A stretch of DNA of 63,954 nt from Reclinomonas americana ATCC 50394 (GCA_048213135.1 PS015119.1:53746-117699), one strand, 5' to 3'. Positions 3,729-63,954 are shown, counted from the stretch's first letter. The notes: generated by a model from the sequence alone, not told the origin. Program-made: numbers and translations.

Positions 3729-6700
3729 TCACGCTCGGGCACCGGTGCCCAAGCGACGAAGCCGATCCAGATACTCAGCCGTCAACTCCGGATACACCTC
3801 CTCCGCCTCCTCGTCGCCACCGTCTCCATCTTCGCCCTCTTCGTCATCATCGTCACTGTCACTGATCGCCCCAGACACTGTTTCAGACGCGCGTCAGTGC
3901 AACACAAAAACAATGACAGGGCACATTCTGTGCGGTCCAGTACCTCGCTGACCGGCAAGTCTGTGACGATTGAGCAGGCCCTGCACGCACACAAGTCACA
4001 CCAGCAAGATACGTACATGAGTGACCGAGAGCGACAAGGACATTGGAAGGGCAAAACGCACCGTGGCCGCCACCACCGACGAAGTGTCCTCCTCCAGTAC
4101 CGAAGCTGTGGCGTCGTCGGTGGTTTCGCTTAGGGCTCGCGAGGCGGCAGCCGACTCCACCAACGCGCCACTGCTGCTCCCCGAAACCGCGTGCCCCGCC
4201 CTCTCGGCAGACGCCACGCGACCTTCGCCAGTCAGGAATGCCATTTTCGCCGCCTCTTCGTCGGTGGTTGACACTTTGAAGTGGGCGAGTCTGTGCACCG
4301 CAAAGTGTTCGCTGAGTTTGCGCGGGGCGATTCAAGACAGAGTCGGTGGGCGTGCGCACACGAAACTTCATCTTCTCTGCAAATGTGCTCGGCGAGTCGA
4401 CCTCGGGATCCGACCGGCGACCAAACAACTTGCGCATGGTGAGCTTCTTGACCACCTGCGGCATAATGTCGGCCAGAATGTCTGCAAGCGCACGCAACAC
4501 AACTGAGAACGCGCGACGGGCCAGGTGAGCGCAAAACGATGAACACCACACACCCTTCTTCGCCTGCTCGCCAAACTCCTTCATCGTCCACGTGACGTCG
4601 TGATACACATGGGCGTGCAGGCGAAGTTTGAGCGAGTCAAAGTCTTTGAAGTCGCGTTCCTGTGTCGCATGGAACTCGATGAGTACACAGACACGAGCGC
4701 ACGCACAAATGCACGCTCAGTGAACGATGACCTTTGGGCCCTTGAAGGACAGCAACAGCGTGGTCTCCTGGATCTTGATGTAGTCAAAGGTCTTGTTGCG
4801 GCGAGCACGATCCTTCATCAGCTCCACAGACTGCTTGGTGTAGAGTCGGCGCTGTGGACTGAACAAGCTCTGTGGGCGCCGTCGCTCCACCGCCGTGGCG
4901 GGCGATGATGACAGCTGTGTGCGACTCGGCACATCGCGGAAACGCGAAACCGATCCACTCGGCTCCGACCCCGGCGACACGTGCGGTGAGTCGCTCGAGT
5001 GCAATGGCGGCAACAGCAGCGGTTGCTGCTGCAGATGCAAGTGCGGCGGTGGTTGATGGTGGTGGTGGTGGTGGTGTTGCGATGGTACTGGCGCTGGACC
5101 GACGTGCATCGCCGGCTCACTGGACACTGCGAGCGGAAATCCTTCCCTATCAGCACTGCGATCGACCACAACATGGAACGTGCGCCACGCCTTACCAGCA
5201 ATCACTTCCTCAAAGTCCGTCACGTACGACTCGGCCGTCTGCAACGACTGCGTGCGCTGTGGTGGAGTGCGACCAGTGCTTCGCGCAGTGGTACTCGGTG
5301 GCGTAATCGGTCCTGCGTTCACCACGACAGCCGCAGCCGTGGCCGCCGCCAGGGCCACCAGAGGGAGCGACGGCGATCCGCCATTCCACCCAACACGAGA
5401 GACGAGACTGGCTTTGGGACGCATCGCTTGCTGGGCCGCCAAGTGCGCCTCCAGCCACCCGGTGAAACTGCGGTGCGGCAGGTGAGACAGGTACATGGCG
5501 ACAAAGTGAAAAACAACATGTGTGCGACGCACCCAGGATGCCCAGTTGTAGGCCGAGAGGCGGAGACGGGGGTAGTCTGACTCGAACTCTGCGCACAACA
5601 CATTGTCTCCATTCAGTGACAAACTGGTGTCCACCCACCACAAGTACCGCCATGTGCGAGCTTCACCTTGCCGTCGGCCTCGGAGAAAAAGTACGACCAC
5701 AGTTCCAGGTACAAGTTGTACGTCAGTTGGATGCGCATGGGGAAGAGGATGACTTGGAACATCTCGAACACCTGGAGGGCATTGAGCACGGCGAGTCACA
5801 TCACGCTCATGGCCTTGCGGAAACGTACCGGAATCCGATTCTTTGGCGGCCGCTGGCGCACATTGAGTTGGAAAACGCCGTTCTTGGTCATGAGGCTCGA
5901 CTGCGCAGTCTCCAGCGACTGCAGCAGCTGCGGGTAGTACGCATTCGGTAGCCGATTCTGCGCCTCCATTCTCCGCACGCGCACCGAGAACTCTGCGTGC
6001 AGGCGTCAAGTCAGCCGTGACCTGCACGGGAATGCACATTCGCAAACATACGCAGCGATGACTTCCACCGGAAAGCAACTCGCCATCCACATTCACCACG
6101 TCCAACTTGGCACTGACAATGGGCTGATGACCTGAAGAATACGCGCACACACGCGCACGTGTCAGCACACACCCTCTGACAAGGAACGAAACAAACTGCA
6201 GCACAACTCTCGTCAATCAACGCCAGCTGCACCAGTGACACTTCGGCGGCAAACACCGTGTGAATGCCTTCGATCTGCGTGTGGTGCTTGTGCTCGGCCT
6301 CGAGACATGCACGCAAGTTCCGTTTCAGCACTTGCAGACGGTGCTGCTGGGCTGAGAGACGCGCCTGCAGCGTGTGCAAGTCGTCGATCTGCCAGAGGCG
6401 CACACTGTGAATATCGCCTTTCCCTCAGCAACCAAACGAGCACCGAGAAACGCAACCGTGTCCAGGTCCACATCCACATCCAGTTCAAACTGAATCGCCT
6501 CCTTCAGGCGATCTACGTTGCGCTCCAACGAGCGCACCATCTTGCTGAGTCGAAGCATTTGATCGTTGCGCCCTTGTCCCAGAATGCGGCTGAACACCAG
6601 CGTGTCCACCTGGTCACGGAAGGAGGAGGACGGTTGAGAACGACAGAGAGAAACGAAACACAGGCTGCACACCATGTCGCCGCACCTTGTCGTCCAGCAG

Positions 6701-17314: not shown

Positions 17315-19359
17315 ATGCGTCGCGCACTGACTGAGGCCGAGTGGACCGAGCTGTGCACAGTGGTGTTTGGCGACTCGTCTGTGGCGGCCGATGGAGTGTG
17401 GAACCTGCAAGGCTTCTCGTACTTGGCAGAGGAGGTGGGCTTTGAGCAGGCGCGCAATGGACCGTGTGGAGTGCTGGCCGCCGTGCAGTGCCACTTACTC
17501 AATGAGTTGGTGTGGCCAGCGGGCGATGGTGAGTTGCAGGAGAGAGCGACTGTGTGTGAGAGAGAGTCTGACCACGCGTGTGTGAGCATGCAGAGAGCGT
17601 GTGTGGCTCGTGGAAGGGCGTGAGTGCGGATCGGCGATCAGTGGCGCTCATGGCTGCAGTGATCAAGTGTTTGCGGCAGGCAGCAGCACCGTCGTCATCG
17701 CTGCTTCGTGTGATGGTGCCTGCAGATGAGGTTTGCATCCATTCTCATCTTTGCCTATCTCTCTCTCACTCTCTCCCTCGTCTGCCTCTGATTGCGGTGC
17801 ACGCAGAGCTCTGGCAACGTGTTTGCCGACTCGGTGCGCCCTCCATCGGTGCTGGAGACAGTGTGTGTGTTGGAGGTGCCAGTGGAGAGTGCCGACGAGC
17901 TGCGACGCGCCTTGCTGCCGTTCGTGCATGTGTTGGAGCAGCCGGGCGGCTTGCTGTTATTCTTGTACTCGCTGGTGTTGACGCGAGGTGTCGAGCAGGT
18001 GTGCGCGACACGCTGGTGAGGTCTTCTCCCTGTGTGGTGGTTGCTTATCGATGTTGGATGCAGATTCGACGAGACATGTCGCAGGATCCGACGCAAAACT
18101 TCTTTCACGATTGCTCGTTGGTGGCCACCGACGATGGCTTCTGCACGCAGGCGGTGACGAACTTGGTGATTGCCGGGCGCGCTTCGTTTGACGTGCGCGA
18201 GGATTTCTCCGATGTGAGTCTTTGCGTCTTGTGGATGCCTGCTCTTCTATTGACGCTCTCCGTGCAGCACCCGCCCAGCGTCGGTCTGTTGGCTCTGGAG
18301 GAGGCCGAGTCGAGGGGAGTGGTCACCGTTGGGCACGTGCTCAAGCGACCCAAGTGTCCGTGCTGGGTCGTCGAAGGCGCTGGCCACTACACCACCTTGT
18401 GTGCGCTGCAGGCAAGTGATTCATGTCAGGCGATGCCCCCCGTCCCGTCTGACTCGTGTTCTCACGATGTATGGAGGTCAGCCGGTGGTTTCTGCACCCG
18501 AGAATCCTGGTGTTCCGGTGTCGTTTTTGGCCTACAACGGCCTGCGACCGGGCGGACCGCGCTTTGTCGAGTTCCAAGCGGATCTCGGCACGCTCGACGT
18601 GACGCGCACCTCTCTCGTGCGCTTGTCGGATTCGTCTCCCGTGCCACCCCCACCGCCAGCGGCACCACCGGCACCCGACACGGTCGCCAGTGAACCGGGC
18701 CCATCGTCGTCGTCGTCGTCGTCGTCTGCAGCGAGTGGCAGTGGCGCGACGATGAAACCCGGAGTGCACGTGCAAATGATTGTGTCGCGTGAAAGGAGCT
18801 CCGTGGACGGTACGTGGTTGTACGAGGTGGCCTGTTCCGTCAAATTGCCACCTCCACGTCAACCGTCACTCGGCATGCTGCTTGACGAGAGCGCTCCCGA
18901 CGGCATTCCCTGGTTCGATCGCATGGGCACTGGTGAGGAATGCTGATGCCTTTTGTGCTTTCGCTCACCCAGACTCTTTCGCTCACCACGCCTACGCCCA
19001 GTGGTTCGACACGAATGGGAGGTTGGTGTACCGCGGCCGAAATGGCGCTGTGCGCACTGCACGCTACTGCCCGATATTTGCTGGAGCGCGTACCACGAGC
19101 CGGATCACATTCTGTGCACCGAGTGCCTGCTTCCGATTGAGGAGTGCGGCCGCACGCTTTGGTTGCCGTACGAAATGCTGCCAATGTCGGCCAAGGTAAC
19201 GTTTCTCTCTGCTGACAAGGTGGGTGTCGATACTCATCACTCGTGCTGCACTAGCGACGAGTGGACGATACGTATGCGCCGCCCATCGCCCGCGTGTTGC
19301 GCACCCGATGGCCCGAGGCACGCATCACACATGCTCCTGAGCCACCGCCATCATTGTAG
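17315..19359 (+). CDS. MINDY-3/4 (FAM188)-family deubiquitinase with an inserted C4 zinc finger
   Basis: Catalytic motif GFEQARNGPCGVLAAVQ, plus LFLYSLVLTRG, FCTQAVTNLVIAGRA, VGHVLKRPKCPCWVV..GHYT, YNGL and a C-terminal VLRTRWP. Stop TAG at 19357-19359. Confidence 0.88.
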
Positions 19360-32000: not shown

Positions 32001-33968
32001 TTTTTCCTTCTGTTCTCACCCCCATTTTTTGTGCGGTGCAGGACCGACGACGTGGAATTCAAGTTGCACGATCAGAAGAGCCGACTGACGGCAGAGCACG
32101 AAGTTGCGCCTCTGGTCCCCCACTGCAGCATGCAGTGCGCTCTTGCTAATTATGTGTGCGACGCAGGGTGCCATGAGGAAGCTCGAGCAGAGCAAGAACG
32201 ACGAGATTGCACGACTGACTGCGGAACTCAACACCGCCAAGAGCCAATCGGAGGCCAGCAGCCGCTCGCTGCAGTCTCAAATGCAGGAGGAACTCAGTCG
32301 TATGCAAGCGGTGCGTGCTATAATGCTGCAATCCTGTGAATATCAATCTCACCGTGCGTGTGCCCTCGGCAGGAGTTGGAAAGAGTACGCGCCGCGGAGC
32401 AGGGCTCCAAAGACGCACTGCAGCGCAAGCTGGAGAGCGACTTGGCACAACTGCGCTCACAGTTGCGCCCACCCCACTTGTCGTGCTTTGTCTCTCGATG
32501 ATTCGAGTGCTCAATTGCTGCGCTGCGTGCAGACATGCGGCCGAGTTGCAACGTGTGCGTGAAGAGGGTGAGAAGCAGTTGCGCGACGCCGTGGCCAAGG
32601 CGCAACGCGAGGGCGACGATCGTGTGGAGGCCGCAAAGCGTGAGCTGCAGGCGCAGATGCAGGCTGCACTGGCGGTCAGTGTTCATCAGACTGAATAGTT
32701 TGCTGGTTCTTCGCAAAAGCTCACCTGGTTTGAAACGTGTGCAGGATGCCAAAAACAAGGCCGACCAGGCCCTCAGCAAGGCGGCTTCTGACATGGCCGC
32801 GGCCAAGGACGCCGACAAGAACAGTGCGCTCGAAGCGTTGCGAGCGGAATTTGCTCGCGAGAAGCAGGCACTCACGGCTCAGCATGCCACCGTGCTGGCC
32901 GACTGGGAGCGGCGCAAGAGCGAGTGGGCAAGTGAAAAGACCGCCCTCGAAGGCGACAAGACGCGCCTGACGGTAATGCCACTTGCGAACTCGATATGTT
33001 GTTGTTTTGGATGACTTGACTGAGATCTGGCTGGCGCAGAACGACGTGCATCGCGTACAATCGCAACTGTCGCAGCTGGAGAACGACTTGCAGACGGCCA
33101 ACAACGAAATCAGAAGACAACTGAACGAGATGATGGAGACGAAGCGGCAGTTGGTGGATGAGATGGCTCAGCGCGAACGCGAGCTGAAGCACGAGCGAGA
33201 TCGTGCACTGGCCGCTCTCGATGCCTCCCACCAAGGCGTGATTGCACGCATGAATGAGGACTTTGGTCGGGCACGCGAGCTGTTTGAGCAAAAGGACGCG
33301 CTGTGGGCGCAGAAGTTGCGGCGCACGCGCTTGGCTGAGGGGTATGAAGATGAGAATGATGATGATGATGCTCACTGTGTTATTCTGTGCCTTCACCAGA
33401 TATGCGGAACTGGAGGACCGCTGGATGCATCGCGAGAGCCGCCCCGAGGACCTGCAGCTCATTCACGATCTGCAAGAGGAGCTTGGCATGACGCAGGAGC
33501 GACTGGCCAAGGCCATCGAGGACATGAAGCTGTACAAGTTGGAGCTCATCAACCGCGAGGAGTCCTACAACAAGACCTTTGGCAGATCGCCCACTGTCGG
33601 CGTGATGAACCCGGTGGGCGGCAGTAACAAGTCCAACGGCAGCGCTTCTGGTGCCGGCAAGCCGCTGCAGAAGCAAAAATCGGCCACCAACGGCATGCAG
33701 CTGGGAGGTATTCCCGGTGGCCTCCCGCCTGTGCCCTCGGCCGCTGGCAGCAGCGGCCGAGCGCCAAGTGTGACACGTACTGGCCCCGCAGGTCCCTCTA
33801 GGTGAGTGGGTGGGAGTCGGGCGAAATTCACTGCACGTGTGTGTCGATAGTCTCTAACCGAGAACAGTCGGTGGTAATTCTTTATGTTCGTTGGTGTGAC
33901 TGAGCAGGCCACCATCGGTCACCAAGGCATCTGGGTCAACGACTCCGACTCGCCTGCCCCCTAGTTGA
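29083..33968 (+). CDS. FAM184-like coiled-coil protein
   Basis: The spliced N-terminus MSKKIAQLTKVIYHLNTQND and the C-terminus RESRPEDLQLIHDLQ...MKLYKLELINREESYNKTF are FAM184A/B hallmarks. All introns were traced in frame to TGA at 33966-33968. Confidence 0.85.
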
Positions 33969-34045
33969 CAATGTTATGTGAAAAGAAAGCGAAGAAGACG
34001 AGAAAAAGTAGTGTGTGAAATTCGAATGAAAAATGTTGTGCGTGT

Positions 34046-35766
34046 TTACTCATTGAAGCGGGCGGGTGAGAATGGTCGCAAGTCGAACAACGAGCACTCC
34101 CCGTCCAGCAGCAACTCGGCGACAGCAGCACCGGTGGCAGGGGCGTTGAGGATTCCTGGATTGAGGGAAAGAGTGAGATGGCAGAGAAGGATAAGGAATG
34201 GCAAGTGAAAGGCAGACCCCAGCATGAGTGGCCCGACACCATGTGGATGGTGTTGTGGGAACCAGTCAGTGGCCCGACAATGGGCACATCGTCGTCGGTG
34301 GTCGGCAGGAAGCAGGCCTGGATGGTGTCGACGACGGCACCGCCCTCCTCCGGATCAAGCGCGGTGGAGATGGAGGCCGCCACGTGCTTCAGTACCTGTG
34401 GCAACGAATTGATGGTGAGTGGCGAGTGAAGAGGAGACTCGGGAATAGCATGCACCTCGGCAGACGCGGCATCTGGCTCGACTTCGTCGGGCGATGAGGG
34501 CTGCATGCAGGAGAAGATGAGAAGCTCGTTGCATGACACAAGCGCACTCTCGCACTGCTGCCTCACCAGTACAGCACTCCGGTTCGAGGCACCACAGATG
34601 TAGACCTTGCCCGAGGGACGTGGATAGACCTCGGGGTCGGCGTGGCTGCCGTTGGCCAGGGTGAAGTTGAGGAAGAGGGCGGTGCCACTGATGGGGCGTG
34701 CGGGCTCCAGCACAATCGAGTGCGCCTTGAGACCACCGACGCGCGGCACCTGGATGCCGTACTGCTCGAGCTCCCATTCGTCGAGCACGCACCCCGTCCA
34801 CGGCCCCATGGCCAGCACTGCTCGTGCACGTGCGCGGTGAGCGCAAGAATTTATTTGCTTCTTCTCTCAGCACCTGCCACTCACCCACAGTGTCGCACTC
34901 AATAGGCTCGTCGCGCCCATCGACCAACACCCCTCGTGCACGCCCATCGGCCTCCTACTCGCACCAAACACGGTCACAGACAACCGCACAGACGACAGCC
35001 ACACTCACGCAGACTGACGCGCGCGCACCACTCGCAAACCCGTGGCCCGACCGATGACCAGCTCGCACCGCCCAGTGGCCACCGCAGCCTCCATCAACGC
35101 CTCAGTCAGCTTGCACGGATGCACCTGTGCCGTGGTGTCGGGCGTGCCCAGCTGCTCCACCTGCGTCGGCGGCACACGACCATCCAGCCACTCGAGCGGA
35201 CGCTCCTGTGCAGACAACTTGACCGAGGGCGCCACCACGGGCTTGGCGCCGGCCGCACGCTGCTTCGGTGCACGCTCCGATGCACTCACAGACAACTGTG
35301 TGGTGAGGCACGATGAGGAGAAGGGCAGCGATCGCAGCGAGGAGGAGAATCACCGTCTCCAGTCGACGGTACTCGATGTTCTCCGCGCCAAAACGATCCG
35401 CCAGTGTGTTGTGTAACCTGCTGCAGTGGTGAGCACGCACAGAGGAGCAACGGAGGCACGGAAGACGTGACGCACTCGAACGAGATTCGAGCCATGGCTG
35501 CAGACAGAGAGCGAGAGAATATGCGCATAAATGCACGAGTGGAGGCGTGTGGAGGAAGACAAAGAGTGATGCACGCAACGACCCACTGGACCGCCATCGC
35601 ACCACGACTTGGCGAGGAATCCGCCTGCACGCGCAGAGGCAGCCGCCGCCACTCGTGAGCGTTCGAGGCAAATGACGCGCACAGTGGCCGCCTGTGGATG
35701 CGTGCACAGGTGGTAGCAGATGCTGCTGCCAATGACACCGGCGCCGATAACACAGATGGTGACCAT
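34046..35766 (-). CDS. FAD-dependent oxidoreductase, DAO family (yeast Tda3-like)
   Basis: Rossmann motif ICVIGAGVIG, plus AASARAGGFLA, TTAQVHP, VVLAMGPW, DPEVYPRP, QACFLP and GHSCWGILNAPATG. Confidence 0.88.
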
Positions 35767-49844: not shown

Positions 49845-52800
49845 GCAGATTCCCGACCCATATCGACGAGGAAATAGCGCTCGGCAGCAGAACCGCAGCG
49901 CAGCGACGTCACGAGGCGTCGTCGCAAACGTTCTGCAACCAACTCTGACCACGATCGTAAACAGCCGGTCCACCGGAGTACCGCACGCGCATACGCATGC
50001 ACGCAGTCATTGTCGAGAACGAAGTTGGACGTAGAATCTGCGAGGTAAACATCGCATGAGAGCGTGCATGTCGTACAGCGTAGTGTGCAGCACGCACGAG
50101 GACTGAGAGGAGAGTGTCCATCAAACCGAATGTACTATCTGCAAGACATCTCTGCCACACAACAGCACACCGCAATGTACTGCAGCTGCCGCACATCGCT
50201 GGGACGCATGGAAATTAACTGCATATATATGCATGCATATGGTCGACGCCGCAGCGGGTATGCAACGATGTCAGCATGCGACAGTACGACGACGCGCTGA
50301 AACGGACCAGCTGATTAATGAGTGCTCCTGGCGCCGGCAACAGACGTCGACTCAGTCACGTGCACGCCGATCGCTGCGCTGCATGGCGGGCATTGTAGCA
50401 CTGGTGCCAAATTTAAAGCTAGTCGACGAGAGCGAGAAAAAAAAGATGGCTCAGGGTTGCGAGTCACGCTCACATTTGAAGAGTGTACATGTGTGAGCAG
50501 CACAACAGCCAGATCAAAGAGATCATGCATGCATATGATGTGCGTGCTCGCAGGTAGCAAGGCACGCACTAAGGATGCAGAGTGGTTCACTGTGCTGCTA
50601 CAGACGACGGCCTCTTCGGTGAGTGACATGCTCAGAAAAATGTTCACAAAGCGAGTCATCACTCACACGAAACGACGTGGCGCCGGCACGGCACACACGC
50701 ACCATGGCCAATCATGAGCATGATCACATGCATCACTGAGTGTGTGCTGGAGCGCTAGCAGCCTGATGCGCAGGCATGAACAAGGGTGAGCAAGGAAGCA
50801 CAGCGGAAAAATGCTCATACTCATATCACTTGCCACGCCAAGCAAAGGGTGGCGAATTCGAAGGCTCAAGCAGCGTAAGTAGTGAACATGGTCAAAAAGG
50901 GACATGTCGACAGCAGCACACAGAGCAACTCTGTGCACTTGCACAAGGAGAGCGACCTCTGCGCGCGATAGCAAGTGGATAGATAAGAACTAAGAGAGAC
51001 AAATTCATTCGGTTGATCAAACTGTGGAATGTTCAGCAGTATCAGGCTGCGTACCTCTCTGCATGCGTCTACCACCTCCACACAAGCAGGCAGCTGATTC
51101 AGCCATCTCGAAGAAGGGAGAGGAAGCGGTCGCCGTTGAGCAGCTCAATGCGATTGCGCAGGTGGAAGAGGAACTACTCGTCGACCACCTTGTTCAGCGA
51201 CCTGTAAGAGAGGTAGTGTCAGTGACTTTGGTGAGAGTGCACCTGTGAAAGAGGTGATCACTTGTACTCACACTCGCCCCCAGCCGATGGTTTCGCTTTT
51301 CGCTCCGCAGCATGCGAGTTGATCGCACAGAACGATCTGGAGTCACACAAAGACGCTTCAGCCCTGCGTATCCATCAACTTGGTTCTCCTCGTAAAGCCG
51401 ACCGCTGCAACGCCGCATCATTAGGCCTGTGGAACACCACCACCACCACCATCACCACCACCAGCAAGTCCGGCACGATAACACAGCGGTGCCCACTGTT
51501 CCCTTTGTCGACGTAAGGGTGGCCCAGTGAGTCGGGTGAGAGCTGTATCTGTGCATAGAGACTCCCAAACACAGACTTGGCCATCACATGGCACGGAGTC
51601 TCACCTGGTGCACACAGGTTCGACAACACCACGCGTACCAGGCCACTGGCGCGGCGGAAGCAGCATCATGTACGCTCCTTCGCTCAAACAACCCCAGCTC
51701 CAACATGGATTAACTGCAGTGTGTGTTCAACGGAGGTGCATGAGTGATCATGAATCAGCATGAGTGCATGCTCACACATAGCGGAAGTGGGCGAGCGAGA
51801 TACCGACTCACAAAAAGCCTTCAGCCGAGCATCCACAGTCCCAGCCACCGAGCCGGTAGTGTCGCTGATGACCTACTGCAGGCAAGGCAATGCCTTGTAT
51901 GAACATCCACTTCTCAACAGAGACAGCAGCCACAGCGGCGCACATGCTGATACGTATACGCACTCACCAGGTTGGAGAGCCAATACTCACAACTCCGCTG
52001 TTGAGACGAACATGAAGTAAGCAGCATTGCTGATTCGCCCCCAAGGAGGCGCAGCGTCTCACGTACCCTTGTGCGGCACCAGCTTCATCACACGTCGAGC
52101 AAGCCCATCAGGACATATCCGTGGTGCAGCCGACATTGCTGTACTGCACCCAGCTCGTGCTCTGCTGCCATGGAGCAGGAATGACGTGTGCTACTGGCCG
52201 TTCTCTGCAGCTGCGAGGTATTGAGTGCACCGTGGTCAGTCGCAATACTAGGACCAAGCCAGCGACGCACCACTCACCACAGCATTCGCGATCAGCTGCA
52301 AGATAAGAGAGTGGCTCATAGCACAATGTCGACATCATGGTCGCACCTCCTGGAGGAGGCTCCCGAAGGCCTGATACGCATGCATCCTCGGCGACAAGCA
52401 CCAGTCGTGCGATCATCGCATTCACACTCGGCATGGACACCCACACAGTGCGTGCGCCGCTTTCACTCACACTAGATCTAGACACACAATGCAGGGACCG
52501 CCCAGGTGGTGTCGAGCATCACGACTGCAATCGTGAGACTTGACTATGCGCTGAACACATGAGGCGTGGTGAGTCACACATAGCTGCATGCCTCAACACC
52601 AGTGGGTGCACTCACTTGGCACCTTCGCAGTGGTATGTGGATCGCAAGTCTCACTGCCTGAGTCTGATTGCGAGAGCGAAGTGGCCAGACGCAGCACGCT
52701 GCAATGTCCTCGACAATGGCGTGTCTCGGCAGTCTGCGCAGGCAGTCACCACCTGGTGCAATAGGTAGAATGAGTCGTGCACGTGGCATCGTAAACGAAA

Positions 52801-54625
52801 ACTCAACTCAGCTTCTCTCTCTCCCTCTCTACACACACGTACAGACACCCACGCACGCACGTACACACACACACACACACACACACACATATGACGTACC
52901 TGCCTCTGATATCAGCAGTTTGCACACGTGCCTTGTGCAAAAACAACGAAGAAGGAACTGCTTGTTTGCCTCTGGGAAAAGGCAGCTGTCGCCGAAAACC
53001 CTGTAACAACACCACCTCCAGCATAGGGTGCTGCTCGACACTGCAGACGAGTGGCCACTGCAGCCGGTTTGTAGGCCAAGGCTTAGAGCCCGCCATTCAA
53101 GGTAGAACAGCTCACGGCAACCAAGCCATCCACATAGCGTTGACAAACTCGGAAGGCAGACCTGGGATGGCGGCCACAATGCGGATCACAACCAAGTCGG
53201 CTGCAACAAGAGACCAGTCTCTGCGAGACCTGCAGCACTGCGGTGCAAGTCCAGGACTGCTTCCCGATCGGCCACTGCTTCTGAGTCTCCCCTTCGCAAT
53301 GAGTAAATCAAGTACACGCACACCCTCACACCCACCCACACACCCACACACACAGCAGGCATTGCAATCACCTTTGCTGCACACACTCTCCGCAAGCGCC
53401 TGAACGATGAGGTCATTTGGTCAGCTGAGTCACATGGCTTATAGCAAGCGCTGCTCCATGATCATGACACTCATTGAGCTCAGGTGTGAGCATTTGCACA
53501 ATGGATACAGACGCACCTCGCATGAATGAGGCACTTCATCGCACTCCACAGGGCGGTCAGCATCGGAGAGCGTGCGACTCGTGTGGTCTCTCCTGCCAGT
53601 CAGTGGTTGATGCTGGATGATACAAGGGTGGGAGTGGCACTCGTGCAGTCGTCCAGTGCGAGTCCCCACGACTATCAATCATCACTGTCAGATCATATTG
53701 CTGCATTACGCACCCTCTCTCTCTCTCTCTCTAACACACACACTCTCTCTGTCACCCACACACCCACACATCCACACCCTCACACGCACACACACGCACA
53801 GCAGCATCTCTATCCCAAGCCCTCGCAGGCTGAGTCCACACACGTGGTCGGCTGAATCCCTGTTGTGCCGCTGACGTAGACAGTGGTGGTGGAGCTCCTC
53901 CCCTTCGTGCATGTCTCACCACCGTGAGCAGACTCGAAGAGCGCACGGAGTGCGCGACACTGCATCTGACACACAGTACAACTGTGTGGTCGCCACTGTC
54001 AGACGCATCCACAGAGCTGTGACGCCACGCACGGAGTCAGGGACGATGTGCTTCCACGTAGACAGGCGCGCAGGCGCGCGGAGCGCGCCTGCAAGTCACC
54101 TTCTCTCGCCACAGTGCGAAAACTTTGTAACGACTTGATCAGCGCAGTGTATCACGTTTTGCTCCGCCTACAGGCATCTCCTTCAGATGCCGCCAGCACC
54201 ACTCTCCTCCCCACACGACGGCGCACACGCTCATATATAGCATGGCCCATGGTGACACATAGGGGACTCTGCATCGTCATGTACCTGTGGCCACATTTTC
54301 CCTCACATAATCTGACAGACCGACCTGATAGTGCTCGAATGTTAGAACGCTCGCGCTCACTCGGAAAGACATGTACAGAGTCAGAGCCAGCAGACACTGT
54401 GGCAAGGAACATGCCAACCGCTCGTCCACGTGCACGTCGGAAGTGGATTCGACTGCAGCGCGGAAGATGCATAAGTACAAGCATCACACCACCGAGCCTG
54501 TATACGTGTAGATGGCGCTGGCGAGTGATCACAGAACGGCGATGCTCATGGCCTCTCAAAGGCTCACGGGTGTGGTTGGACCTGAGTGGTGATGCGTGAT
54601 CAACGCGTGAGGATCTCACGCTCTT

Positions 54626-54720
<95 letters not shown>

Positions 54721-54851
54721 GGAGGCACATTGGTCGACGATGGGCGCATGTGTTGTCAACTCCGCTGTCATGCCTTTGTCGCGCGTTGCTGCTGGTATGG
54801 TCTCTTTCGCGCTCGTTATGACAGTTGTGATTACATCACTGCCTCTCTCTC

Positions 54852-54884
<33 letters not shown>

Positions 54885-55409
54885 GCGCATGTGTGTGTTT
54901 GCGGTTGTGTGCGCTTGCAATGTGCATTGCATTCGTGAATTCTGCGTGCTTGTTGTTGTCGTTGTTGATGATGCACAAGAACAAGAGTGAGTGAGATAGG
55001 AAGTGTGTATGCGTATGCGAGGGCGACGTGTCTGCTTGCCTTCTTGTTTGCAATCGCGAGACGTTGACTGTACGCGAGTGATCACGATGAGTGTGTGAGA
55101 GAGAGCGTGCTTGAGGGAGCAAGAGTGACTGCTGTCTATTCTGCGTTGCAGCACAGCTGCGCATGTGCTATGTATGATGCACTTGGTGTGTGCGTCCCTT
55201 CTGCTCATCCTTGTTGCCACTGTTTCCGCAATGTGCACTCTATATATCCCTATTGCAACGAGGACAGGCTTGAGAGGGTCCAAGAGTCAACAATTGCAAG
55301 CAAGAAGGGAGCAAGACGCACATGGTGAATGAGGGGGTGAGAGAATGAGGCTGCAGCTGTGTGTGTGTGGTGGAACAGGTCATGAGTGACGGCCGAAGGG
55401 CGAGAGCGC
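49845..55409 (-). pseudogene. Degenerate, stop-interrupted coding-like sequence (pseudogene or decayed mobile DNA) of unknown origin
   Basis: Protein-like minus-strand fragments (e.g. DLVVIRIVAAIPGLPSEFVNAMWMAWLP*, RFVNIFLSMSLTEEAVV) are broken by stops and separated by intron-like (CA)n/(CT)n tracts. I could not build an intact spliced frame. Confidence 0.35.
54641..54719. repeat. (CA)n microsatellite
   Basis: Direct observation. Confidence 0.95.
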
Positions 55410-56270
55410 NNNNNNNNNNNNNNNNNNNNNNNNNNNNNNNNNNNNNNNNNNNNNNNNNNNNNNNNNNNNNNNNNNNNNNNNNNNNNNNNNNNNNNNNNNN
55501 NNNNNNNNNNNNNNNNNNNNNNNNNNNNNNNNNNNNNNNNNNNNNNNNNNNNNNNNNNNNNNNNNNNNNNNNNNNNNNNNNNNNNNNNNNNNNNNNNNNN
55601 NNNNNNNNNNNNNNNNNNNNNNNNNNNNNNNNNNNNNNNNNNNNNNNNNNNNNNNNNNNNNNNNNNNNNNNNNNNNNNNNNNNNNNNNNNNNNNNNGAGA
55701 GAGAGAGAGAGCTAGAAGCAGTGAGGATGCTGGGGAAGATGCGAGAGAGTACAAGTGGGAGCAAGAGTGAACGAGCAAGAGGGAGTGAGACAAGAACAGT
55801 GATTGAGTGAGTGTGTGGAAAGGGAGCAGGTGAGTGGCGAAGCGAGAGAGAGTGGGAGCAAGAGTGAACGAGCAAGATTGTGAATGAGGGCCCGGTGAGT
55901 GAGATGAGGCTGTATGTGGAGAGGGAACGGAGAGAGAGAGAGAGAGAGAGAGAGCAAGAGCGAACGAGCAAGATTAATATGAGGCAGTGTGTGGAGAGGG
56001 AACGGGTCATGAGTGGCGGAGCGAGGGAGGGAGTGAGGGTGCTGGGGGAGGGGCGAGAGAGTGGGAGCAAGAGTGAACGAGCAAGATTGTGAATGAGGGC
56101 TCGGTGAGTGAAATGAGCAGTGTGTGTGGAGAGGGAACGGAGAGAGAGGGGGGATAGAGTGATGGTGCTGGAGAAGATGCGAGGGACGGGGAGTGCGAAC
56201 GAGCAAGAGGGAGTGAGGCAGTGATTGAGTGATCATGAGTGAGGGAGCGGGGGAGTGATGCTGTCGATGA
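55320..56270. repeat. Purine-rich (GA) complex tandem repeat or minisatellite, with an internal gap
   Basis: The unit agtgggagcaagagtgaacgagcaaga occurs at 55754, 55851 and 56060. gtggagagggaacgg and gtgaatgagggc also recur. Confidence 0.8.
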
Positions 56271-56279
56271 AGAGGAATA

Positions 56280-56342
56280 GCAACGGCGAGGGAAGGCCTT
56301 CCTTCCGCCTTTTATTGCCTGACTCCCAGTCAGCATTGTTGC
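56280..56342 (-). ncRNA. Compact multi-hairpin element; candidate 3' part of a Fanzor omegaRNA scaffold
   Basis: A closing stem GCAAC(56280-84)/GTTGC(56338-42) encloses GGCG..CGCC around the palindrome GGAAGGCCTTCC (56291-56302) and a CTGACT/AGTCAG hairpin. It lies about 370 nt downstream of the nuclease stop, at the edge of unique sequence. The omegaRNA role is inferred. Confidence 0.4.
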
Positions 56343-56707
56343 AGAACAGCGCACGCATATGACGGAGGCACTGTGCAACTCTTGGGTTCTTCGCGAGGGC
56401 GCGCGAGATGCAGAGGAGTACTAGCTATAGTGCGGCTTCTTCGGCACGGTCTGTGGCCTGGAGCACTTCGGGGGCGAGGCGCCGTCGTTGGCCATGGTGA
56501 GCGAAGACGAGTGAGCTGTGATTGCAACGGATCCGGAGAGACGATGAAGAAGTGAATACTGTATACGACTGATGTCTATTGGATCGTGGAGAGTGGTGCG
56601 GGGGTACGGAGTGCAAGATCCCAACGAGAAACAGTCTTTACTAACTCATATGTATACAGCACCGTCGCACGGAGCAGAGGCGGTACAGCCCAGCGAATAC
56701 AGACGGC

Positions 56708-59700
56708 TCACTTTCCTCGTGGATGTGCACCCTTGCGCCGTGTGCGCGGAGGTGCGCCGTCGTCCACATTGTCGTCTGCGTCGAGCTGCAGCCGGCGCTT
56801 GCCATCGTTGGATCCGGGTTGGCGTGACGCTGGTGCGGTTACATGAACAGCTGCTGCAGATGATTCTGATGGCGGTGGCGGAGGAGATGGCGGAGGTGGT
56901 GGCAGTGGAGTTGACGGTGGAGGAGGTGGCGGTGGAGGTGCAGCTGCCGACAATGTCGACGTAGACGATGGTGCTCCTGCACCTGGCCGCACGCGCGGCA
57001 CAACAATGACGACGCAACACGTGTTCTTGGAAGCCGACTTGTCTCGGCCGACCGGCTTCCCGTACAGTCGACACATGGTGTTCCCGCAAGTCAACACTTT
57101 TTCGTACTTGGGCCGCGGACGGAATGGCGTCCCACAGCTGCACAGCCTCGTGGTGTGATATTCGGCAGGCTGGAAAAAGTAGATTGGCTTCAGACCAAGC
57201 AGTTTGCGCCGGGCATTGATGTTCTCGATCTACACGCGATGTGAGCAACAAATATATACTGGACAAGCCACGACACGCACCTCTCGTTTCAGTTCCCGAA
57301 TAAACTGTCCGTGCCCAGCGTAATGCAAACCCCTGACTGTCACTCTCGCAAGTCCACGCGCCCGCACCTCCAAAGTGCCGTCAACGGCGACGCGCAGAGT
57401 GAAGCGCGACGACATGTCGTTGGACGAGCGACTGAAGTCAGGAGCTCCAATCGCCGTAATGTGCGTCACAATGCTACGCAGTTCGTGCACGGAGTCAGTC
57501 AGCTGCTGAGCAATAAAAGACAGTGGGGGTGACAAGCGCGCGCAACAACTTGATAATGTCGGCCAAGCAGACATCGCGCGTGCGACACATCGCTCTCCAC
57601 TGGTTGATGTGGCGACGGTGGCACTCCAGCACCACCGAATCTGGCGCCAACACAGTGCCATAGTTTGCTGGTCCGTACGCTTGTTGAACGAGGTACGCGC
57701 GGTCAGCAGCCGGAACAAGGTATTTGCTCGGCACGTTTTTGCCAAACTCAATGTGCGTGCCCGTGCGACCTGTATGCAGTACGTGTGAACAACAATGCCA
57801 CATGCAATGACACATGTGCGCCCACTTGTAAACTCACCCCCTCCCACACACTGCGCTGTTCGAAGTGTGCGAATCCCACTGTCGTCAACCATGAGGCGCT
57901 CGCGCTCAGGCCGGATCTCGCCATACAACAGAAGAATCCTCCACTCGCTGGCAGAGCGATCGATAGCCTCGCTTCCCAGCCGTTGGAGCATCGCCTTGTA
58001 CCCCGATTCCACCACCCACGCAGCGGGCGCGGCGCCACGTCCCCGCTGACACTGTCGTTCCCAACCGTCTGGCTGTTGACGCGGAGCAGGTGATGCGTGG
58101 TCGCACTCGCCGGTCGTCAGGGCACGAAGGAGAACGCTACGTGCAAATGAACAAACCACTGCAGCAAAAAGAATAAAGGTTAAGCGTTCTGCCCGTCACT
58201 CGAATTCATCCCCGAGCCATGCGTACACAAATACCTGCGCGACGTTGCTGCACGCCATGGCCAGCCACGCCGCGGCGCCCCACTTCTTCGATCGCCTTCA
58301 CAACCTCACGGACGTCATGCCGCCCGTTGGCCACAGCATCGCGGCGGCTCGTCACCGTGTCCACATACTGCTGGTGGAGCAGTGCAAGACGCACATTGTA
58401 TGGGTCGACAGTGCCGGGCAAGTCTGCCTCAAACGGGATCATGTCAAGCCTCGTCTCGTTCTTGGCACGCCACACAGCATCGCCTCGCGTCTCAATTACG
58501 AATCGTCTGGCGCAGTCATTCACACGGCGTCGAAGACCACTCGCTGCCTCTGTTGCCTCGCGTGCATCTGATTGCAGGAGTCGGTGAGAGAGGAAACGAG
58601 ACTGATGCGCGCAGGAATGACGATCGAGGGAGAAGGGAAGGAGGGAGTAGAGAAGGAGGGAGGGAAGGATAGAGGAGAGGAGGGAACAAAATCTGGACTG
58701 TTTAGATGCACATCCCATCGACACTCACCGAGGAGCAACCATTCTGCTGTCGCTGAATTCGACATAGTGGTACGCTTGCAGTTGTTGCCGGTGGTGAGAA
58801 TCGTCCAGTTGCGCTGGCATTGCATATCCGCTGCACAGCAAAGCAGCACATGCCGATCGAGAGCGTGCGTGAGCGAAGGATCGAGAAAGAGAGAGAGAAA
58901 AAGAGAGATTCACGCGATGCGTCAGCTCACCTGCGACCACCTGCCAGCACACTGCCGTCCTGCATGCGCTCGTAACCGCCGCAGCCGAGCTCTTCAACCG
59001 CGTCGCAGCAACCTGCACCGCATCGTACAAGCCAAGCTCCTCTGGCGGCAGATGAGACCGCATTAGCAGTCTGGATGCCGCCCGTTGTGCCAGTACCGTC
59101 TGTGGGCCATGCTTGCGGTTGCGGGCACGTGCCGGACCGACGAAACTCGGCGCCGTCAGCAGCGCATCCACAAGCAGCCGCTCAGCTGTTGTTGAACTAC
59201 CCGGTGGGCACGACGCTGATGCAGCATCCAGAGCATCTTCCAACTGAATGGCGCACGACAGTATGCGAAAGGCGTGCTGCGTGGCGTTGTGCAGGAACTC
59301 CACAAGCGCGCCTGACACCTCCGCCGGCACACAAAGGAGGCGAGCGAAAACATGCACATCGGCAACGTCGATCTGCTGCTGCTCGTCGACATCCCACTTG
59401 AAGAGTGACACACAGAGGGCGACAACAGGATCGTTCTTCTCGTCGGCTCGACCCAGCAGCGCCTCGACGGTGGCGAGTGTGAGTGTGCCGTCCTGCAGGA
59501 CGGAGTCGATGCGCTCCTGTTGCTCACGTGCGTGCTTTTGCTGTTCCTCCATATATCTGATATGGAGACCGAGCGCTTGCTTCATAGTCCCTCGTGCCGC
59601 AACTTGGGCTGTTCCGACGGCGACTGCAACACAAAAACGACAGACATGAGTCACAAGAACCTCTGGATCCGGATCCATGGCCAGACCGGACGTGCACAAC

Positions 59701-61468
59701 AGTGTGAGTTGAGAGAGAGAGAGAGAGAAAAAAGGGGGGGGAGGGTACGTGAGAGTGGAGTGAAGAGAGCTTGTGTGTGTGTGTGTGTGTACATGTTGGC
59801 AGTGATCACGAGTGACATGAGTTGGAAGAGACAGAGCAGCAGAGGAGCAAGAACGTGCGTCGCATGGAGGAGAGAGATGGGAAGAGGGACTGAGAAACTT
59901 CGACACACACCGTCCACCTCCGTGATCATCGCCGAGAAGCACGCCGAGACATGAATGGAGAGGAATTCCACCGCCACTGCTGCTGCTCGGGCAAACTTGC
60001 ACACTGCCGCCGGATAGTCCGCATCGTAAATACCGTGGCCAGTAGTAGAGATATGACCGATGGCTTTCCATGCGATGGCTGCATCAATCTGGTCAACACA
60101 ACAACTCGCCACATATCGCGCGATCGAACGGTGTCGACCACACTCACCCAGTGCGTTCGCAACATCCTTGCCAACCTCGTACTCGGTGCTGCTCGCCGAC
60201 GACGAAACCGAGGCCACGGCTCGCAGCATTGCAACGACCACCGGTTGTCCCGCTGTCGTGACCCTCACGTGTTTTTGCACAGCGGTTTCAGCCGGCGCCT
60301 CGCCGCCGGCCACATGGACAAGCGCACGTGGAATCAGGTCACTAACGGCAACCATCAACCCGAGGAGGCCGGCATTCGGCAACACAGGCAGCGGTTGTGG
60401 AGAGCAATCGTGGCCGATGGCGTTGTTGAGGTCCGTGAACGACTCGGAAAGGCTGTCGGACGCACGAGACGTCCAGGCAGCAGCAGTGCATCCGGGCGAG
60501 ACGATGAGCGAGTCGAGTTTCATCGCCGTCGCCCGACATTCTGCGCTCACATCGACAGCATGTCGAAGAGCTGAGGCGAGCTTGCAGCCCTGCACCACCG
60601 CCGATACTTGGCCCTCCATGTGCTCGCGCTCGCCGCTACTGGTGTACACCGACAGGAGCTCCGTAGCACGCTCCGTCGCCATCGCCGAGAGCATGTTACA
60701 ACGGTTTCTCAGCTGGCACAAGTAGTTGGTCGGTGTCTCGGCAACTGACGCGGCGTGATCAAGCATGTCCGAGTCGGCGTCGGCGTGGCCACCAACATTG
60801 GCGTCATCCATTTCGGCGTCGGCGTGGCCGGCAACATTGACGTCAACCATTTCGGCGTCGGAGTCGCCAGCTGCAATGTCGACCATTTCGGCGTCGGTCG
60901 TCTGCTGCGAGCCAACACCGAGAACTTGAAGCATGATTTGTCTCTTCACGGTGGGAATGCTGCAAAGACTGTCGAGGCCAGTGATCTGCAATGTTCCACC
61001 ACCTAACACATACACACAATCAGTGATTGCCCGTACAATCATCAAAGACACAGAGGCGTCAGTGCGCGTGATCGCTCTCACCACGCAAGGTCTGGATGGC
61101 GACGTCCTGAAGCACACGAGGCAACGTACTCGCTGTCGGCGCCGCTTGCAACTGCTGTTGCAACAAACGTGTCGAGGGGTAGCGGGCAAATGAGACGTGC
61201 CAGATGCGCAAGTCAGCGAGCGTCTTTGGCGCATCGGCGAACGCCGGTGCCTCTCTCGCGCTCGCGCTCGCCCGTGTCGACTTCACGGCGACCAACAAGC
61301 GTCGCGTCGCATCGAACAGCATTGGTGGCAACGACATGAGCTCCCCCTCCAGAGACAACATGTCGTCATTGACGCTGTGTCGAACGTCTCCTTGTCGCCC
61401 AGTTGCAACACGCGACACGCTGTCAAGCAACAAACTGCGCAATGGGAGAGAGAGAGAGAGAGAGAGAG

Positions 61469-61524
<56 letters not shown>

Positions 61525-63819
61525 NNNNNNNNNNNNNNNNNNNNNNNNNNNNNNNNNNNNNNNNNNNNNNNNNNNNNNNNNNNNNNNNNNNNNNNNNNNN
61601 NNNNNNNNNNNNNNNNNNNNNNNNNNNNNNNNNNNNNNNNNNNNNNNNNNNNNNNNNNNNNNNNNNNNNNNNNNNNNNNNNNNNNNNNNNNNNNNNNNNN
61701 NNNNNNNNNNNNNNNNNNNNNNNNNNNNNNNNNNNNNNNNNNNNNNNNNNNNNNNNNNNNNNNNNNNNNNNNNNNNNNNNNNNNNNNNNNNNNNNNNNNN
61801 NNNNNNNNNNNNNNNNNNNNNNNNNNNNNNNNNNNNNNNNNNNNNNNNNNNNNNNNNNNNNNNNNNNNNNNNNNNNNNNNNNNNNNNNNNNNNNNNNNNN
61901 NNNNNNNNNNNNNNNNNNNNNNNNNNNNNNNNNNNNNNNNNNNNNNNNNNNNNNNNNNNNNNNNNNNNNNNNNNNNNNNNNNNNNNNNNNNNNNNNNNNN
62001 NNNNNNNNNNNNNNNNNNNNNNNNNNNNNNNNNNNNNNNNNNNNNNNNNNNNNNNNNNNNNNNNNNNNNNNNNNNNNNNNNNNNNNNNNNNNNNNNNNNN
62101 NNNNNNNNNNNNNNNNNNNNNNNNNNNNNNNNNNNNNNNNNNNNNNNNNNNNNNNNNNNNNNNNNNNNNNNNNNNNNNNNNNNNNNNNNNNNNNNNNNNN
62201 NNNNNNNNNNNNNNNNNNNNNNNNNNNNNNNNNNNNNNNNNNGAGAGAGAGAGAGCGGCGAGCGGCAATTCAGGGTCACGACAATGGCTCGCTGGTGGAC
62301 AACTACACACATATACTCTCTCTCTCTCTCTCTGTCACTCACCGAACAGACGGCGACAGGCCAGGCCCATCAACGGCGGCCATGGACTCCGCCAACGCTG
62401 TCTCCTCCAATTTCAACGTGGAGAGGCGGTGTGAGGCACTCGCGTGTGTGACAGCAACGCGACCAGCGCGTCCGATTGTGGCCAAAGTCCACGCACAACT
62501 CGCGCACGCGCTCACAGCTTGTGGGCGCAACACCGATGCACACGCTAGTGAGCAACAGCACATATGTGTGCGTGTGACGATGGGAACACACGTACCTCCT
62601 CGAGTGGCAACCGCCGGGTCGCGTTCCTCCTCCTCCTCCTCCTCGGCCTCCTCCTTCTCCGCCGCATCCTTGTCGGCCTGCTTGGCCTTCTTCTTCTCCT
62701 CCTCCGCCTCCTCCTCGTCGTCCTCACGCGGTGGCGGAGAATGGTGCAACGCGTTGCGCTCGCGCTGGATCAGTTGTGCGACCTGGCTCATGACATCGCA
62801 TACCGCCGCAGTTGGATCCACGTTATCACACACCGTTTGCACCAGCTTCTGGGCGCTCTTGCTGGCCTTAACGTGCCAGCTTTTGATGTGGGCCGTCGTT
62901 GTTGTGATGGCTCTGGCCCAGAGAAGAATCTCCTCACCGATCCTCGTCATGCCCGGAGACAGTTCAGGATGCGTTGCGGCGACAACGCAAGTTGCAGCCG
63001 GTGCGGGTGGAGCTTGCGCACGAGGCCTTGAAGCAGCAGGTGCTGCACAAGAGCGTTGGTTAGAAATGACGTCGGCAGAAGTGTGCGTGCAGAGCGAGGG
63101 ATGCGCTGCAAACCAGCAGGTGTGGTGTTCTTGCCCGTCGCCTTTTCCTTCGTCTTCTTCTTCTCCTCTTCCTCCTCCTCCTTCTTGCTATCCTCACTCG
63201 ACGTGCTGCGCCGCTCGGAGGGGAAAAGTGCACCGAGCAACTTGGTGCAATGGTCCTCTGCTCGTTGAAAAACACAGTCAGCAAGCACGCATGTGTGGAG
63301 TGCACGTGCATGCGCAGAGAGGTCTGGCCACGAAACTGCATTCTTGCACGCCTTTGTCGATGTCGGCCGCCAGTTTGTAACACGAGTCTTGCAAACTCGT
63401 AACGACTGTTGGGAGGCGGGCTTCCGGCACGACTCGAGACTCTGCATGTCGCGGTGGTTATCATGAGTTCCTTGTCCGACGGAGTATATATCGACATCAT
63501 GCCAAAGTATCACGGCTCGAGTGCGCACCTTGGCTCACTGCGAGCAGCTCAAAGATCACACGAATGAGGTGCACAAATGCCGCGTGCCCATCCGCTAGCG
63601 CCGTTCTCGCCACCTCCAAGTCCGCGTTTTCTTTCAACAGCGGAATCTGCTTGAGAAACGCGTCCAACACCGTGTCATGGTTTGCCGTGGCGCCACGACG
63701 ACCAGCCGCACGAGGCCCTTGGTAGGCGAGTGCCATCGCCAGAAACAATGAGTTTCTCTGGGAGTCTCTGAGAGCAGAAACGGAGGCATCCTCGGCAATG
63801 GTCGCTGTGAGCGGTGCAA
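56708..63819 (-). CDS. Giant intron-rich Fanzor/TnpB-like RuvC nuclease (at least about 1,650 aa; 5' end beyond window)
   Basis: Exons 63819-63529, 63405-63337, 63257-63114, 63042-62596, 62517-62343, 61419-61082, 61002-59911, 59623-58931, 58830-58729, 58567-58235, 58158-57838, 57769-57573, 57505-57281 and 57229-56708 join in one phase-consistent frame through GT-AG introns. The C-terminus contains RLMVDDSGIRT (RuvC-I), LTDSVHELR (bridge-helix-like), GHGQFIRELK, PAEYHTTRLCSCG (RuvC-II plus zinc ligands), CGNTMC and GRDKSASKN (RuvC-III). Confidence 0.8.
60775..60900 (-). repeat. Coding tandem repeat (about 36-39 bp; DAEMVD/DAEMDD units) inside the Fanzor-like gene
   Basis: ccatttcggcgtcgg occurs three times. 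Translation: DAEMVDIAAGDS-DAEMVDVNVAGHA-DAEMDDANVGGHA-DADSDM. Confidence 0.85.
61446..61524. repeat. (GA)n/(TC)n microsatellite in an intron of the Fanzor-like gene, abutting a gap
   Basis: Direct observation. Confidence 0.9.
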
Positions 63820-63843
63820 CTGTCGTGGTGAGTAAAGCAGCAG

Positions 63844-63892
<49 letters not shown>

Positions 63893-63893
63893 C

Positions 63894-63928
<35 letters not shown>

Positions 63929-63954
63929 AGAAACTGTGTGGTGTGTCGCGTCAG

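Follow-up and report, generated by a model that had tools for sequence, protein, structure and literature searches.

A divergent TnpB/Fanzor-like tail at the end of a long in-frame exon chain in Reclinomonas americana: one gene, two genes or a relic?

The question raised by a 63,954-nucleotide (nt) stretch of DNA from Reclinomonas americana ATCC 50394 (GCA_048213135.1 PS015119.1:53746-117699; the window, numbered here from its first letter) is whether a long series of exons on its minus strand joins an unusually large N-terminal region to a Fanzor-type RuvC nuclease in a single protein, as a first-pass annotation had proposed, or whether two genes, or a gene and the remnant of another, lie there in frame with each other. 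The sequence of the window comes from a draft eukaryotic assembly, has a G+C content near 58% and is interrupted by 10 N gaps over its 64 kb. Our analysis finds an open in-frame exon chain, a coding signal along it and a TnpB-type motif at its C-terminal end, and this sequence pattern itself is real. Fusion of the upstream exons and the Fanzor-like tail into one protein is the simplest reading of this layout of open reading frames (ORFs), and we hold it tentatively, as a possibility that stops short of being probable.

The stop-free minus-strand frames from which such a protein would be assembled lie at 59651-61282 (543 codons), 58725-60083 (452), 57230-58195 (321), 62339-63187 (282), 62947-63534 (195), 56708-57229 (173) and 58206-58724 (172), with a further frame at 63497-63952 (151 codons) that is open at the window end. 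Reading the three frames against the DNA and scoring splice donors and acceptors yielded a canonical GT-AG chain that runs from the first visible upstream exon (E1) to the first 'nuclease' exon (N1) over 3,978 nt, i.e. 1,325 codons, with no stop. Its upstream part, E1-E9 (63819-58235), accounts for 3,657 nt or 1,219 codons and is open in frame into N1. Adding the nuclease exons, about 1,289 nt in length, brings the total to about 4,946 nt, which comes close to the earlier figure of 4,949 nt (about 1,650 codons). The outermost borders proposed earlier also coincide with real sites: position 58159 is an acceptor, and 63819 is the first base of an exon.

All exons of the chain are on the minus strand. 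E1 (63529-63819), whose frame is favoured by codon bias, follows an acceptor at 63820 that is itself preceded by microsatellites. The gene likely extends beyond the window edge, as had been claimed, but an alternative in-frame ATG at 63736 would allow a start inside the window. E2 (63114-63257), with ambiguous borders and a frame again favoured by codon bias, and E3 (62596-63042), with a weak upstream donor (GTTTGC) and a period-3 repeat at 62625-62725, contain the lysine- and glutamate-rich tracts that had been noticed before, namely KKEEEEEEKKKTKEK in E2 and the acidic/lysine tract EDDEEEAEEEKKKAK in E3. E4 (62343-62544) is left undecided by codon bias and is followed by a GTGAGT donor at 62342. 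The intron that follows (61435-62342) includes the N gap seen in the first-pass annotation (61525-62242) as well as a (GA)n run. Its donor is of the strongest type and its acceptor is strong as well; the two form the best-scoring pair and are in phase across the gap, and the intron may hide an additional exon. E5 (61082-61434) emerges from the chain and from codon bias and contains no Pfam family at E <= 1.

The largest exon is E6 (59911-61002, 364 codons), all-helical by prediction, in which three 13-residue repeats of the DAEMVD type, also part of the earlier description, correspond to a 39-nt in-frame tandem repeat (3.3 copies, 83% matches) at 60774-60897. This repeat looks like a young expansion inside E6. 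A perfect GTGAGT donor at 60147 on the minus strand, also inside E6, is left unused in our model; either consensus donors arise by chance in this DNA or E6 hides another intron. Between E6 and E7 (58931-59623; 231 codons, helical, with an in-frame ATG at 59585) lies the putative intron I6 (59624-59910), which is CT-rich, contains a (CA)n run, has no frame preference and is defined by the top-ranked splice pair, in phase. E8 (58729-58830), bounded by the junctions 58930>58831 and 58728>58568 and carrying in-frame ATGs at 58825 and 58765, is not decided by codon bias; it is 102 nt long, and splicing of E7 to either E8 or E9 keeps the frame. E9 (58235-58567), with a codon bias of +13 bits and an 'RRFVIE' stretch, is the probable start of a TnpB-like core.

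This core continues in N1 (57838-58158), with the candidate RuvC-I sites 'AIDRS' and 'MVDDSGI', and in N2 (57549-57769), which is entered by a good 68-nt intron (57837>57770) and read in a frame that differs from those of N1 and N3. N3 (57281-57505) would supply the helical region preceding the zinc finger, and N4 (56708-57229) has a Glu six residues before the zinc finger and RuvC-III in the form of an RD motif, and runs through a Pro-rich tail and a basic end to the stop. Throughout the chain the putative introns have no codon or frame preference and a common CT-rich, microsatellite-bearing style. An organization of the trypanosomatid type, i.e. intronless genes separated by CT-rich spacers, was considered and dropped, given the GTGAGT donors and in-phase junctions.

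How much of this pattern could chance produce? E5 to N4 are all located on the gap-free stretch 56600-61524 (4,925 nt). When this stretch was simulated 200 times with a first-order Markov model, the longest open frame per copy reached 219 codons in the median, 293 at the 95th percentile and 341 at most, as compared to the observed 543, 452 and 321. By length alone, only the 543- and 452-codon frames (E6 and E7) exceed chance. A codon-usage model derived from 21 long ORFs at 1-50 kb, which takes no account of stop codons, selected the frame of the chain in 10 of 14 segments and did so on both sides of the join (binomial p ~0.004, with one in three expected), with +41.6 bits for E6 and +23.6 bits for E7; the misses were E4, E8, the N4 core and the N4 Pro-rich tail. 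The upstream exons are very probably coding.

Merging of neighbouring genes is a common modelling error, and a number of observations weigh against a single fused protein here. Open frames of 200-300 codons arise by chance in this composition, and because they are common, in-frame chains are easy to find. The ten further exons of the first-pass annotation, said to be spliced consistently in phase, have become nine upstream exons in an open GT-AG chain, and the donor/acceptor pairs that score best irrespective of phase turn out to fit it at only 6 of 11 junctions (p ~0.12 versus one in three), which makes phase consistency weak evidence for the chain. The borders of E1-E3 allow several near-equal splice solutions. 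Moreover, in-frame ATGs occur at 59585, 58825, 58765 and 58442, and another one at 59683, in a GCCATGG context, lies within I6 in the frame of E7. Starts at 58825, 59585 or 59683 would yield a Fanzor of about 570-820 residues, which is a normal size: Fanzors are described as transposon-borne proteins of about 500-800 residues (up to about 800 in PMC10711439, about 600 in PMC10530073), with 633 residues for SPu-1-1p/SpuFz1 (PMC3627910).

There could thus be two genes, i.e. a Fanzor of about 570-820 residues that starts at one of these three internal ATGs and is either transposon-borne or resident, and a separate helical host gene upstream, their join being a splicing artefact in stop-poor DNA. 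The non-significant phase fit and the abundance of long chance ORFs would be consistent with this, and so would a tentative profile placement that sets the TnpB N-terminus at the start of E9 and the resemblance of E6 to host-type alpha-solenoid families rather than to TnpB (both described below). We nevertheless consider two genes rather unlikely. When read through, the E6 frame stops at 59651, the E7 frame at 58725 and the E8 frame at 58523, each inside or past the next exon, and no upstream exon has a stop ahead of the candidate starts: the E6 stop is found 30 nt past the ATG at 59683 and 65 nt before the ATG at 59585, and the E7 stop past the ATG at 58825. Since no upstream frame stops earlier, two separate genes would have to overlap or lie only about 65 nt apart (stop at 59651, ATG at 59585). 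In addition, strong donors and acceptors are located exactly at the edges of the coding signal, with E6>E7 (59910>59624) and E7>E8 (58930>58831) being best-scoring pairs that are in phase and E8>E9 (58728>58568) using a GTGAGT donor, and no transposon ends were found. AATAAA, ATTAAA, AGTAAA and TGTAA are all missing between 59910 and 58235, which is weak evidence, as few are expected by chance and the consensus may not be that of this organism; after the final stop, AGTAAA (56642) follows at 66 nt and AATAAA (56316) at 392 nt. This arrangement favours a putative single transcript that would span upstream and nuclease exons.

Whether the tail of the putative fusion is a TnpB-type nuclease at all was addressed by three methods. 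The NCBIfam profile for TnpB (NF040570) aligns residues 21-70 of the 56708-57229 frame with profile positions 341-386 of 389, at 13.1 bits (E=0.042) against a cut-off of 100, and at 12.3 bits with the in-frame intron read through. An Atlas search with residues 1-85 of N4 returned a first match of 0.94 to PF07282, with 19 of 30 matches in the PF07282 set. By tblastn against 50,697 phage records the tail found six records, the best two being a cyanophage 'transposase' at E=0.05. The best phage protein, encoded by Cylindrospermopsis phage Cr-LKS4, carries PF07282 (2.1e-11) and PF01385, and the tail is 28% identical to it over 57 residues that comprise the zinc finger and RuvC-III, with a common Cx4C half. 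Because these three methods agree at the C-terminal end of the profile, we assign the tail to the TnpB family.

Short motifs point in the same direction. N4 fits the superfamily motif D-X(125,275)-[TS]-[TS]-X-X-[C4 zinc finger]-X(5,50)-RD (Bao & Jurka 2013, PMC3627910) with EYHTTRLCSCG, followed after 15 residues by CGNTMC and after a further 9 by the D after R, the four Cys being arranged as CxC and Cx4C, and several candidate RuvC-I Asp residues are found 128-214 residues upstream in the spliced model. A hallmark of Fanzors is a catalytic RuvC-II Glu six residues before the first zinc-finger Cys (PMC10711439, PMC13565253), and such a Fanzor-type Glu is present in N4 as E-Y-H-T-T-R-L-C. The protein then ends, in line with the first-pass annotation, with a Pro-rich stretch of about 93 residues and the basic PPRTRRKG, which resembles a nuclear localization signal (NLS), before the stop at 56708.

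What is missing on the nuclease side counts against the fused Fanzor as well. The TnpB-type Pfam families PF07282 and PF01385 were not found in the tail even at E up to 10, and no match reaches a curated threshold. Searches with phmmer against PDB sequences gave poly-Pro noise or nothing, and no TnpB, Fanzor or Cas12, and word-indexed searches with the N1-N3 frame (near lengths) and with N4 residues 1-85 (longer lengths) retrieved 0 relatives. The similarity spans only about 50-60 residues, and one may ask whether the tail is not derived from TnpB, a large host protein having acquired a zinc-ribbon-like motif at its end by chance. This appears highly improbable to us, as NF040570, Atlas and the phage tblastn search all name the same family at a matching C-terminal place and the [TS][TS]-x-x-Cys...RD motif of PMC3627910 is present. 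As judged from sequence, the nuclease identity can be regarded as secure only for the last ~60 residues. The Fanzor RuvC identity given to the tail by the first-pass annotation therefore holds for the C-terminal TnpB-type motif and the Fanzor-type Glu, but the core beyond these residues has no significant match.

The nearest relative, the Cr-LKS4 protein, is itself an unusually long phage TnpB-family protein of 668 residues (locus 103-2106), with the same Cx4C second half. Over its first ~380 residues, the other phage records give no matches except for a copy with 99.7% identity, from a second Cylindrospermopsis phage, and one further match that begins at residue 220.

How far upstream the TnpB-like core would reach is suggested by profile comparisons of low confidence, some of which again weaken the case for an intact nuclease. 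A local TnpB profile made from nine phage TnpBs (398 positions) matches at positions 329-374 only. Using hhalign, a colinear placement was obtained over E9-N4, corresponding to profile positions 13-383, but with a probability of only 0.8-1.6% and a score of 21.1 that was also reached by 2 of 30 shuffles. In this placement, to be read with the same caution throughout, profile position 13 falls on E9 residue 5, 'RfV.N' on 'RRFVIE' in E9, RuvC-I on 'MVDDSGI', the helix with the conserved His on the start of N3, and the canonical Glu position on 'APDF', where there is no Glu. The mapping is suggestive of a TnpB-like core, including Fanzor's own WED/REC region, that begins at about E8/E9. If so, the truly extra region would be E1-E8, with about 1,100 residues. 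The N-terminal extension of more than 1,200 residues that had been reported is thus matched by the codon count of E1-E9, but part of it is probably Fanzor WED/REC from about E9 onwards.

Two further features of the core are unfavourable to a working module. A DPG motif is expected at RuvC-I, 120-160 residues before the Fanzor Glu (regular expression in PMC10711439), and there is no DPG in E9-N2, where the candidate sites read 'MVDDSG', 'AIDRS', 'IEFG' and 'APDS'. In addition, no good canonical in-phase intron exists at the N2-N3 junction (57549-57506), where the candidate introns have donors such as GTCTGC or GTGCTG, and codon bias favours N2's own frame by about 11 bits over read-through. The change between N2 and N3 could reflect a genuine frameshift, an intron with a weak donor or an error in the assembly. 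Five consecutive C residues are located within 57506-57549, where a one-base frame change would fall, and the hhalign alignment of the first residues of N3, which are partly encoded upstream of the acceptor at 57506, favours such a one-base change, albeit with low confidence. Given the 10 gaps of the draft, the frame change may have been introduced by the assembly; if it was not, the nuclease motifs at the C-terminus would be out of frame with the rest of the protein.

It is at this point that a relic has to be considered, i.e. a Fanzor-like part that is decaying after an old insertion at or behind the 3' end of a host gene and no longer provides a functional RNA-guided module, whether or not it is transcribed together with that gene; the fusion would then be devoid of a biological role. 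A frame change that lacks a good intron, candidate RuvC-I sites without DPG, the unusual CxC...Cx4C spacing of the zinc finger, an NF040570 score of 13.1 versus 100 bits and the missing Pfam match would all be in keeping with decay, as would the adjoining 6.5 kb of repeat-rich, gene-poor DNA and the results of a search for a guide RNA. The fold of the segment 56420-56760, 3' of the ORF, has a z of -0.35, with 33 of 100 shuffles folding as well, and Rfam gave 0 matches over the whole window at gathering scores and 0 at E <= 1 in 55700-57400. A relic is nonetheless unlikely in our view. There is a single frame problem in about 1.3 kb, with all other exons open, and N1, N2 and N3 are still marked by codon bias. 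The Glu-x6-Cys arrangement, the four Cys and the RD have been retained, the Cx4C spacing also occurs in the intact 668-residue phage TnpB, and a one-base error is possible in this draft with its 10 N gaps.

As to mobility, there are no terminal inverted repeats around the gene, as none of four short inverted pairs of 16-23 nt frames it. Among the 10 ORFs at 50-56.9 kb no partner transposase was found, and none of them has a Pfam family or transposase domain. Paralogues, which the first-pass annotation had suggested looking for, did not appear, with no second copy of the gene within the window, over which copies were counted. The nuclease part has four or five introns and a host-like codon bias. 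Because of these introns and this codon bias, and with no inverted repeats, transposase domain or significant 3' RNA structure, it gives the impression of a resident gene rather than of a recent insertion.

What, then, would the upstream exons contribute? Here, searches for relatives returned essentially nothing. With the 543-residue frame of E6, phmmer yielded a single match among 1.84 billion representatives (1.6e-4), which we judged to be spurious, as it covers 66 residues of a repetitive 218-residue protein. For E7, the word-indexed search at near lengths gave 0 relatives. No relatives were present in viral contigs (17 stretches matched, 0 confirmed) or in metagenome contigs (261 and 55 matched, 0 confirmed), and nothing came close to threshold in Pfam, NCBIfam and PDB sequence searches with the upstream exons, with E >= 0.24 for phmmer against PDB. 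The Atlas language-model search with E6 produced leads of at most 0.85 (recognition 1480), all of which are helical-repeat families of large eukaryotic proteins, i.e. Nup192, XPO4, SYO1, XPO7 and DOP1. Structure prediction of the N-terminal region, suggested in the first-pass annotation, was of limited help: AlphaFold run without an alignment gave all-helix models for both E6 and E7, but with a predicted local distance difference test score (pLDDT) of 38.6 and 44.8, respectively, i.e. below 45, both are unusable. We read the upstream part as a lineage-specific, mostly helical and possibly alpha-solenoid-like protein with disordered K/E-rich inserts; nothing in this region resembles a transposase or a REC lobe of the Cas12 type. 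The first-pass annotation had raised the prospect of an undescribed giant or fusion Fanzor class. Since no relative of any part was found, such a 'class' has one member at most.

Taken at face value, the fused gene would be one minus-strand transcription unit, in which at least nine upstream exons would encode at least 1,100 lineage-specific, mostly alpha-helical residues. This helical region would be broken by disordered acidic/lysine tracts and by the young 13-residue tandem repeat, and it would be spliced in frame onto a very divergent TnpB/Fanzor module that extends from about E8/E9 to the stop and includes the Pro-rich and NLS-like end. Such a gene would most likely have originated as a host-transposon fusion, when a host gene captured a Fanzor ORF and used it for its 3' exons. 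The Fanzor part would have been resident for long, as suggested by its four or five introns, its host-like codon usage and the fact that neither transposon ends nor a transposase were seen. A module that is still functional would be expected to bind a guide RNA and to direct the helical scaffold to matching DNA. The complete scenario, in which an intron-rich host gene joins an alpha-helical scaffold of at least 1,100 residues to a complete, guide-RNA-competent Fanzor and thereby places an accessory domain on chromatin, seems quite unlikely to us.

Should it be true, however, this would be the first domesticated or fused Fanzor and a natural eukaryotic protein of Cas12 size. It would mean that RNA-guided recognition of DNA has been co-opted in eukaryotes as well, and it would provide a natural example of effector tethering. 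If there are two genes or a relic instead, the case illustrates that in GC-rich DNA with few stops, exon chains that stay in frame are easily obtained.

The surroundings of the gene are less unusual. Pfam families were detected in three of 10 long frames elsewhere in the window: a Hobbit/FMP27-like C-terminal stretch at 4720-6216 on the minus strand (23.3 bits, just below the cut-off of 24.5), a MINDY-3/4 deubiquitinase domain at 17572-18690 on the plus strand (Pfam, 1.1e-13) and a DAO-type FAD oxidoreductase at 33964-34866 on the minus strand (Pfam, 6.2e-7). These neighbours are ordinary eukaryotic genes. The region 50000-56700, which makes up about 6.5 kb downstream of the stop, is gene-poor and repeat-rich and has short low-complexity frames only. 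It features (CA)n, (TCTG)n and (GA)n runs and an N gap, with degenerate direct repeats of 28-80 nt at 55700-56250. A Fanzor nested in an intron of a host gene that continues downstream was also considered; this arrangement was dropped, given that only short low-complexity frames are found at 50-56.7 kb.

With Fanzor1 and Fanzor2, which are eukaryotic homologues of TnpB, the locus shares a eukaryotic intron-bearing gene, the [TS][TS]-x-x-zinc finger...RD arrangement, the Fanzor-type Glu that reflects a rearranged RuvC-II, and a basic NLS-like stretch. It is set apart from them by the missing DPG at RuvC-I, the CxC...Cx4C spacing, profile scores far below cut-offs, the C-terminal position of its NLS-like stretch and a window that shows neither transposon ends nor a partner transposase nor a second copy. 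Moreover, if the fusion is real, the protein would be at least twice the largest size quoted for Fanzors (about 800 residues, PMC10711439). Among prokaryotic and phage TnpBs (IS200/IS605, IS607), the nearest found here is the Cr-LKS4 protein discussed above. In contrast to the situation here, the phage protein has a Pro where the Fanzor-type Glu is found, and outside the shared stretch there is no significant similarity to the intron-containing eukaryotic gene.

Cas12 effectors are TnpB descendants with large helical REC expansions. When read as a fusion, the gene described here would be similar in architecture, with a TnpB-type RuvC/TNB core placed after a very large helical N-terminal region and at least 1,600 residues in total (compare PMC10432273). 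Unlike in Cas12, there is no CRISPR context, the extra region contains low-complexity tracts and bears no likeness to a REC lobe, as far as can be told for a region known from its sequence alone. TldRs and other domesticated bacterial TnpB derivatives provide a parallel in that a TnpB-family module may have left its transposon to serve the host (bioRxiv 10.1101/2023.11.30.569447; PMC13565253). However, TldRs are small, bacterial and nuclease-dead proteins with an adjacent guide RNA, whereas here no guide RNA was found and the catalytic Glu and the last Asp are kept. In the available text of PMC3627910, PMC10432273, PMC10530073, PMC10711439 and PMC13565253, domesticated TnpB derivatives (Cas12, TldR) are described for prokaryotes only, Fanzors appear as compact transposon- or virus-borne nucleases of roughly 500-800 residues, and a fused or domesticated eukaryotic Fanzor is not mentioned, with supplementary catalogues being places where long or fused forms could be listed. 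With respect to its proposed origin, by which host exons would have been spliced onto a transposon ORF as terminal exons, the gene would be analogous to the host-transposase fusion genes of animals such as SETMAR. In the known cases of such genes it is the DNA-binding domains of cut-and-paste transposases, and not TnpB or Fanzor modules, that have been joined to host sequences.

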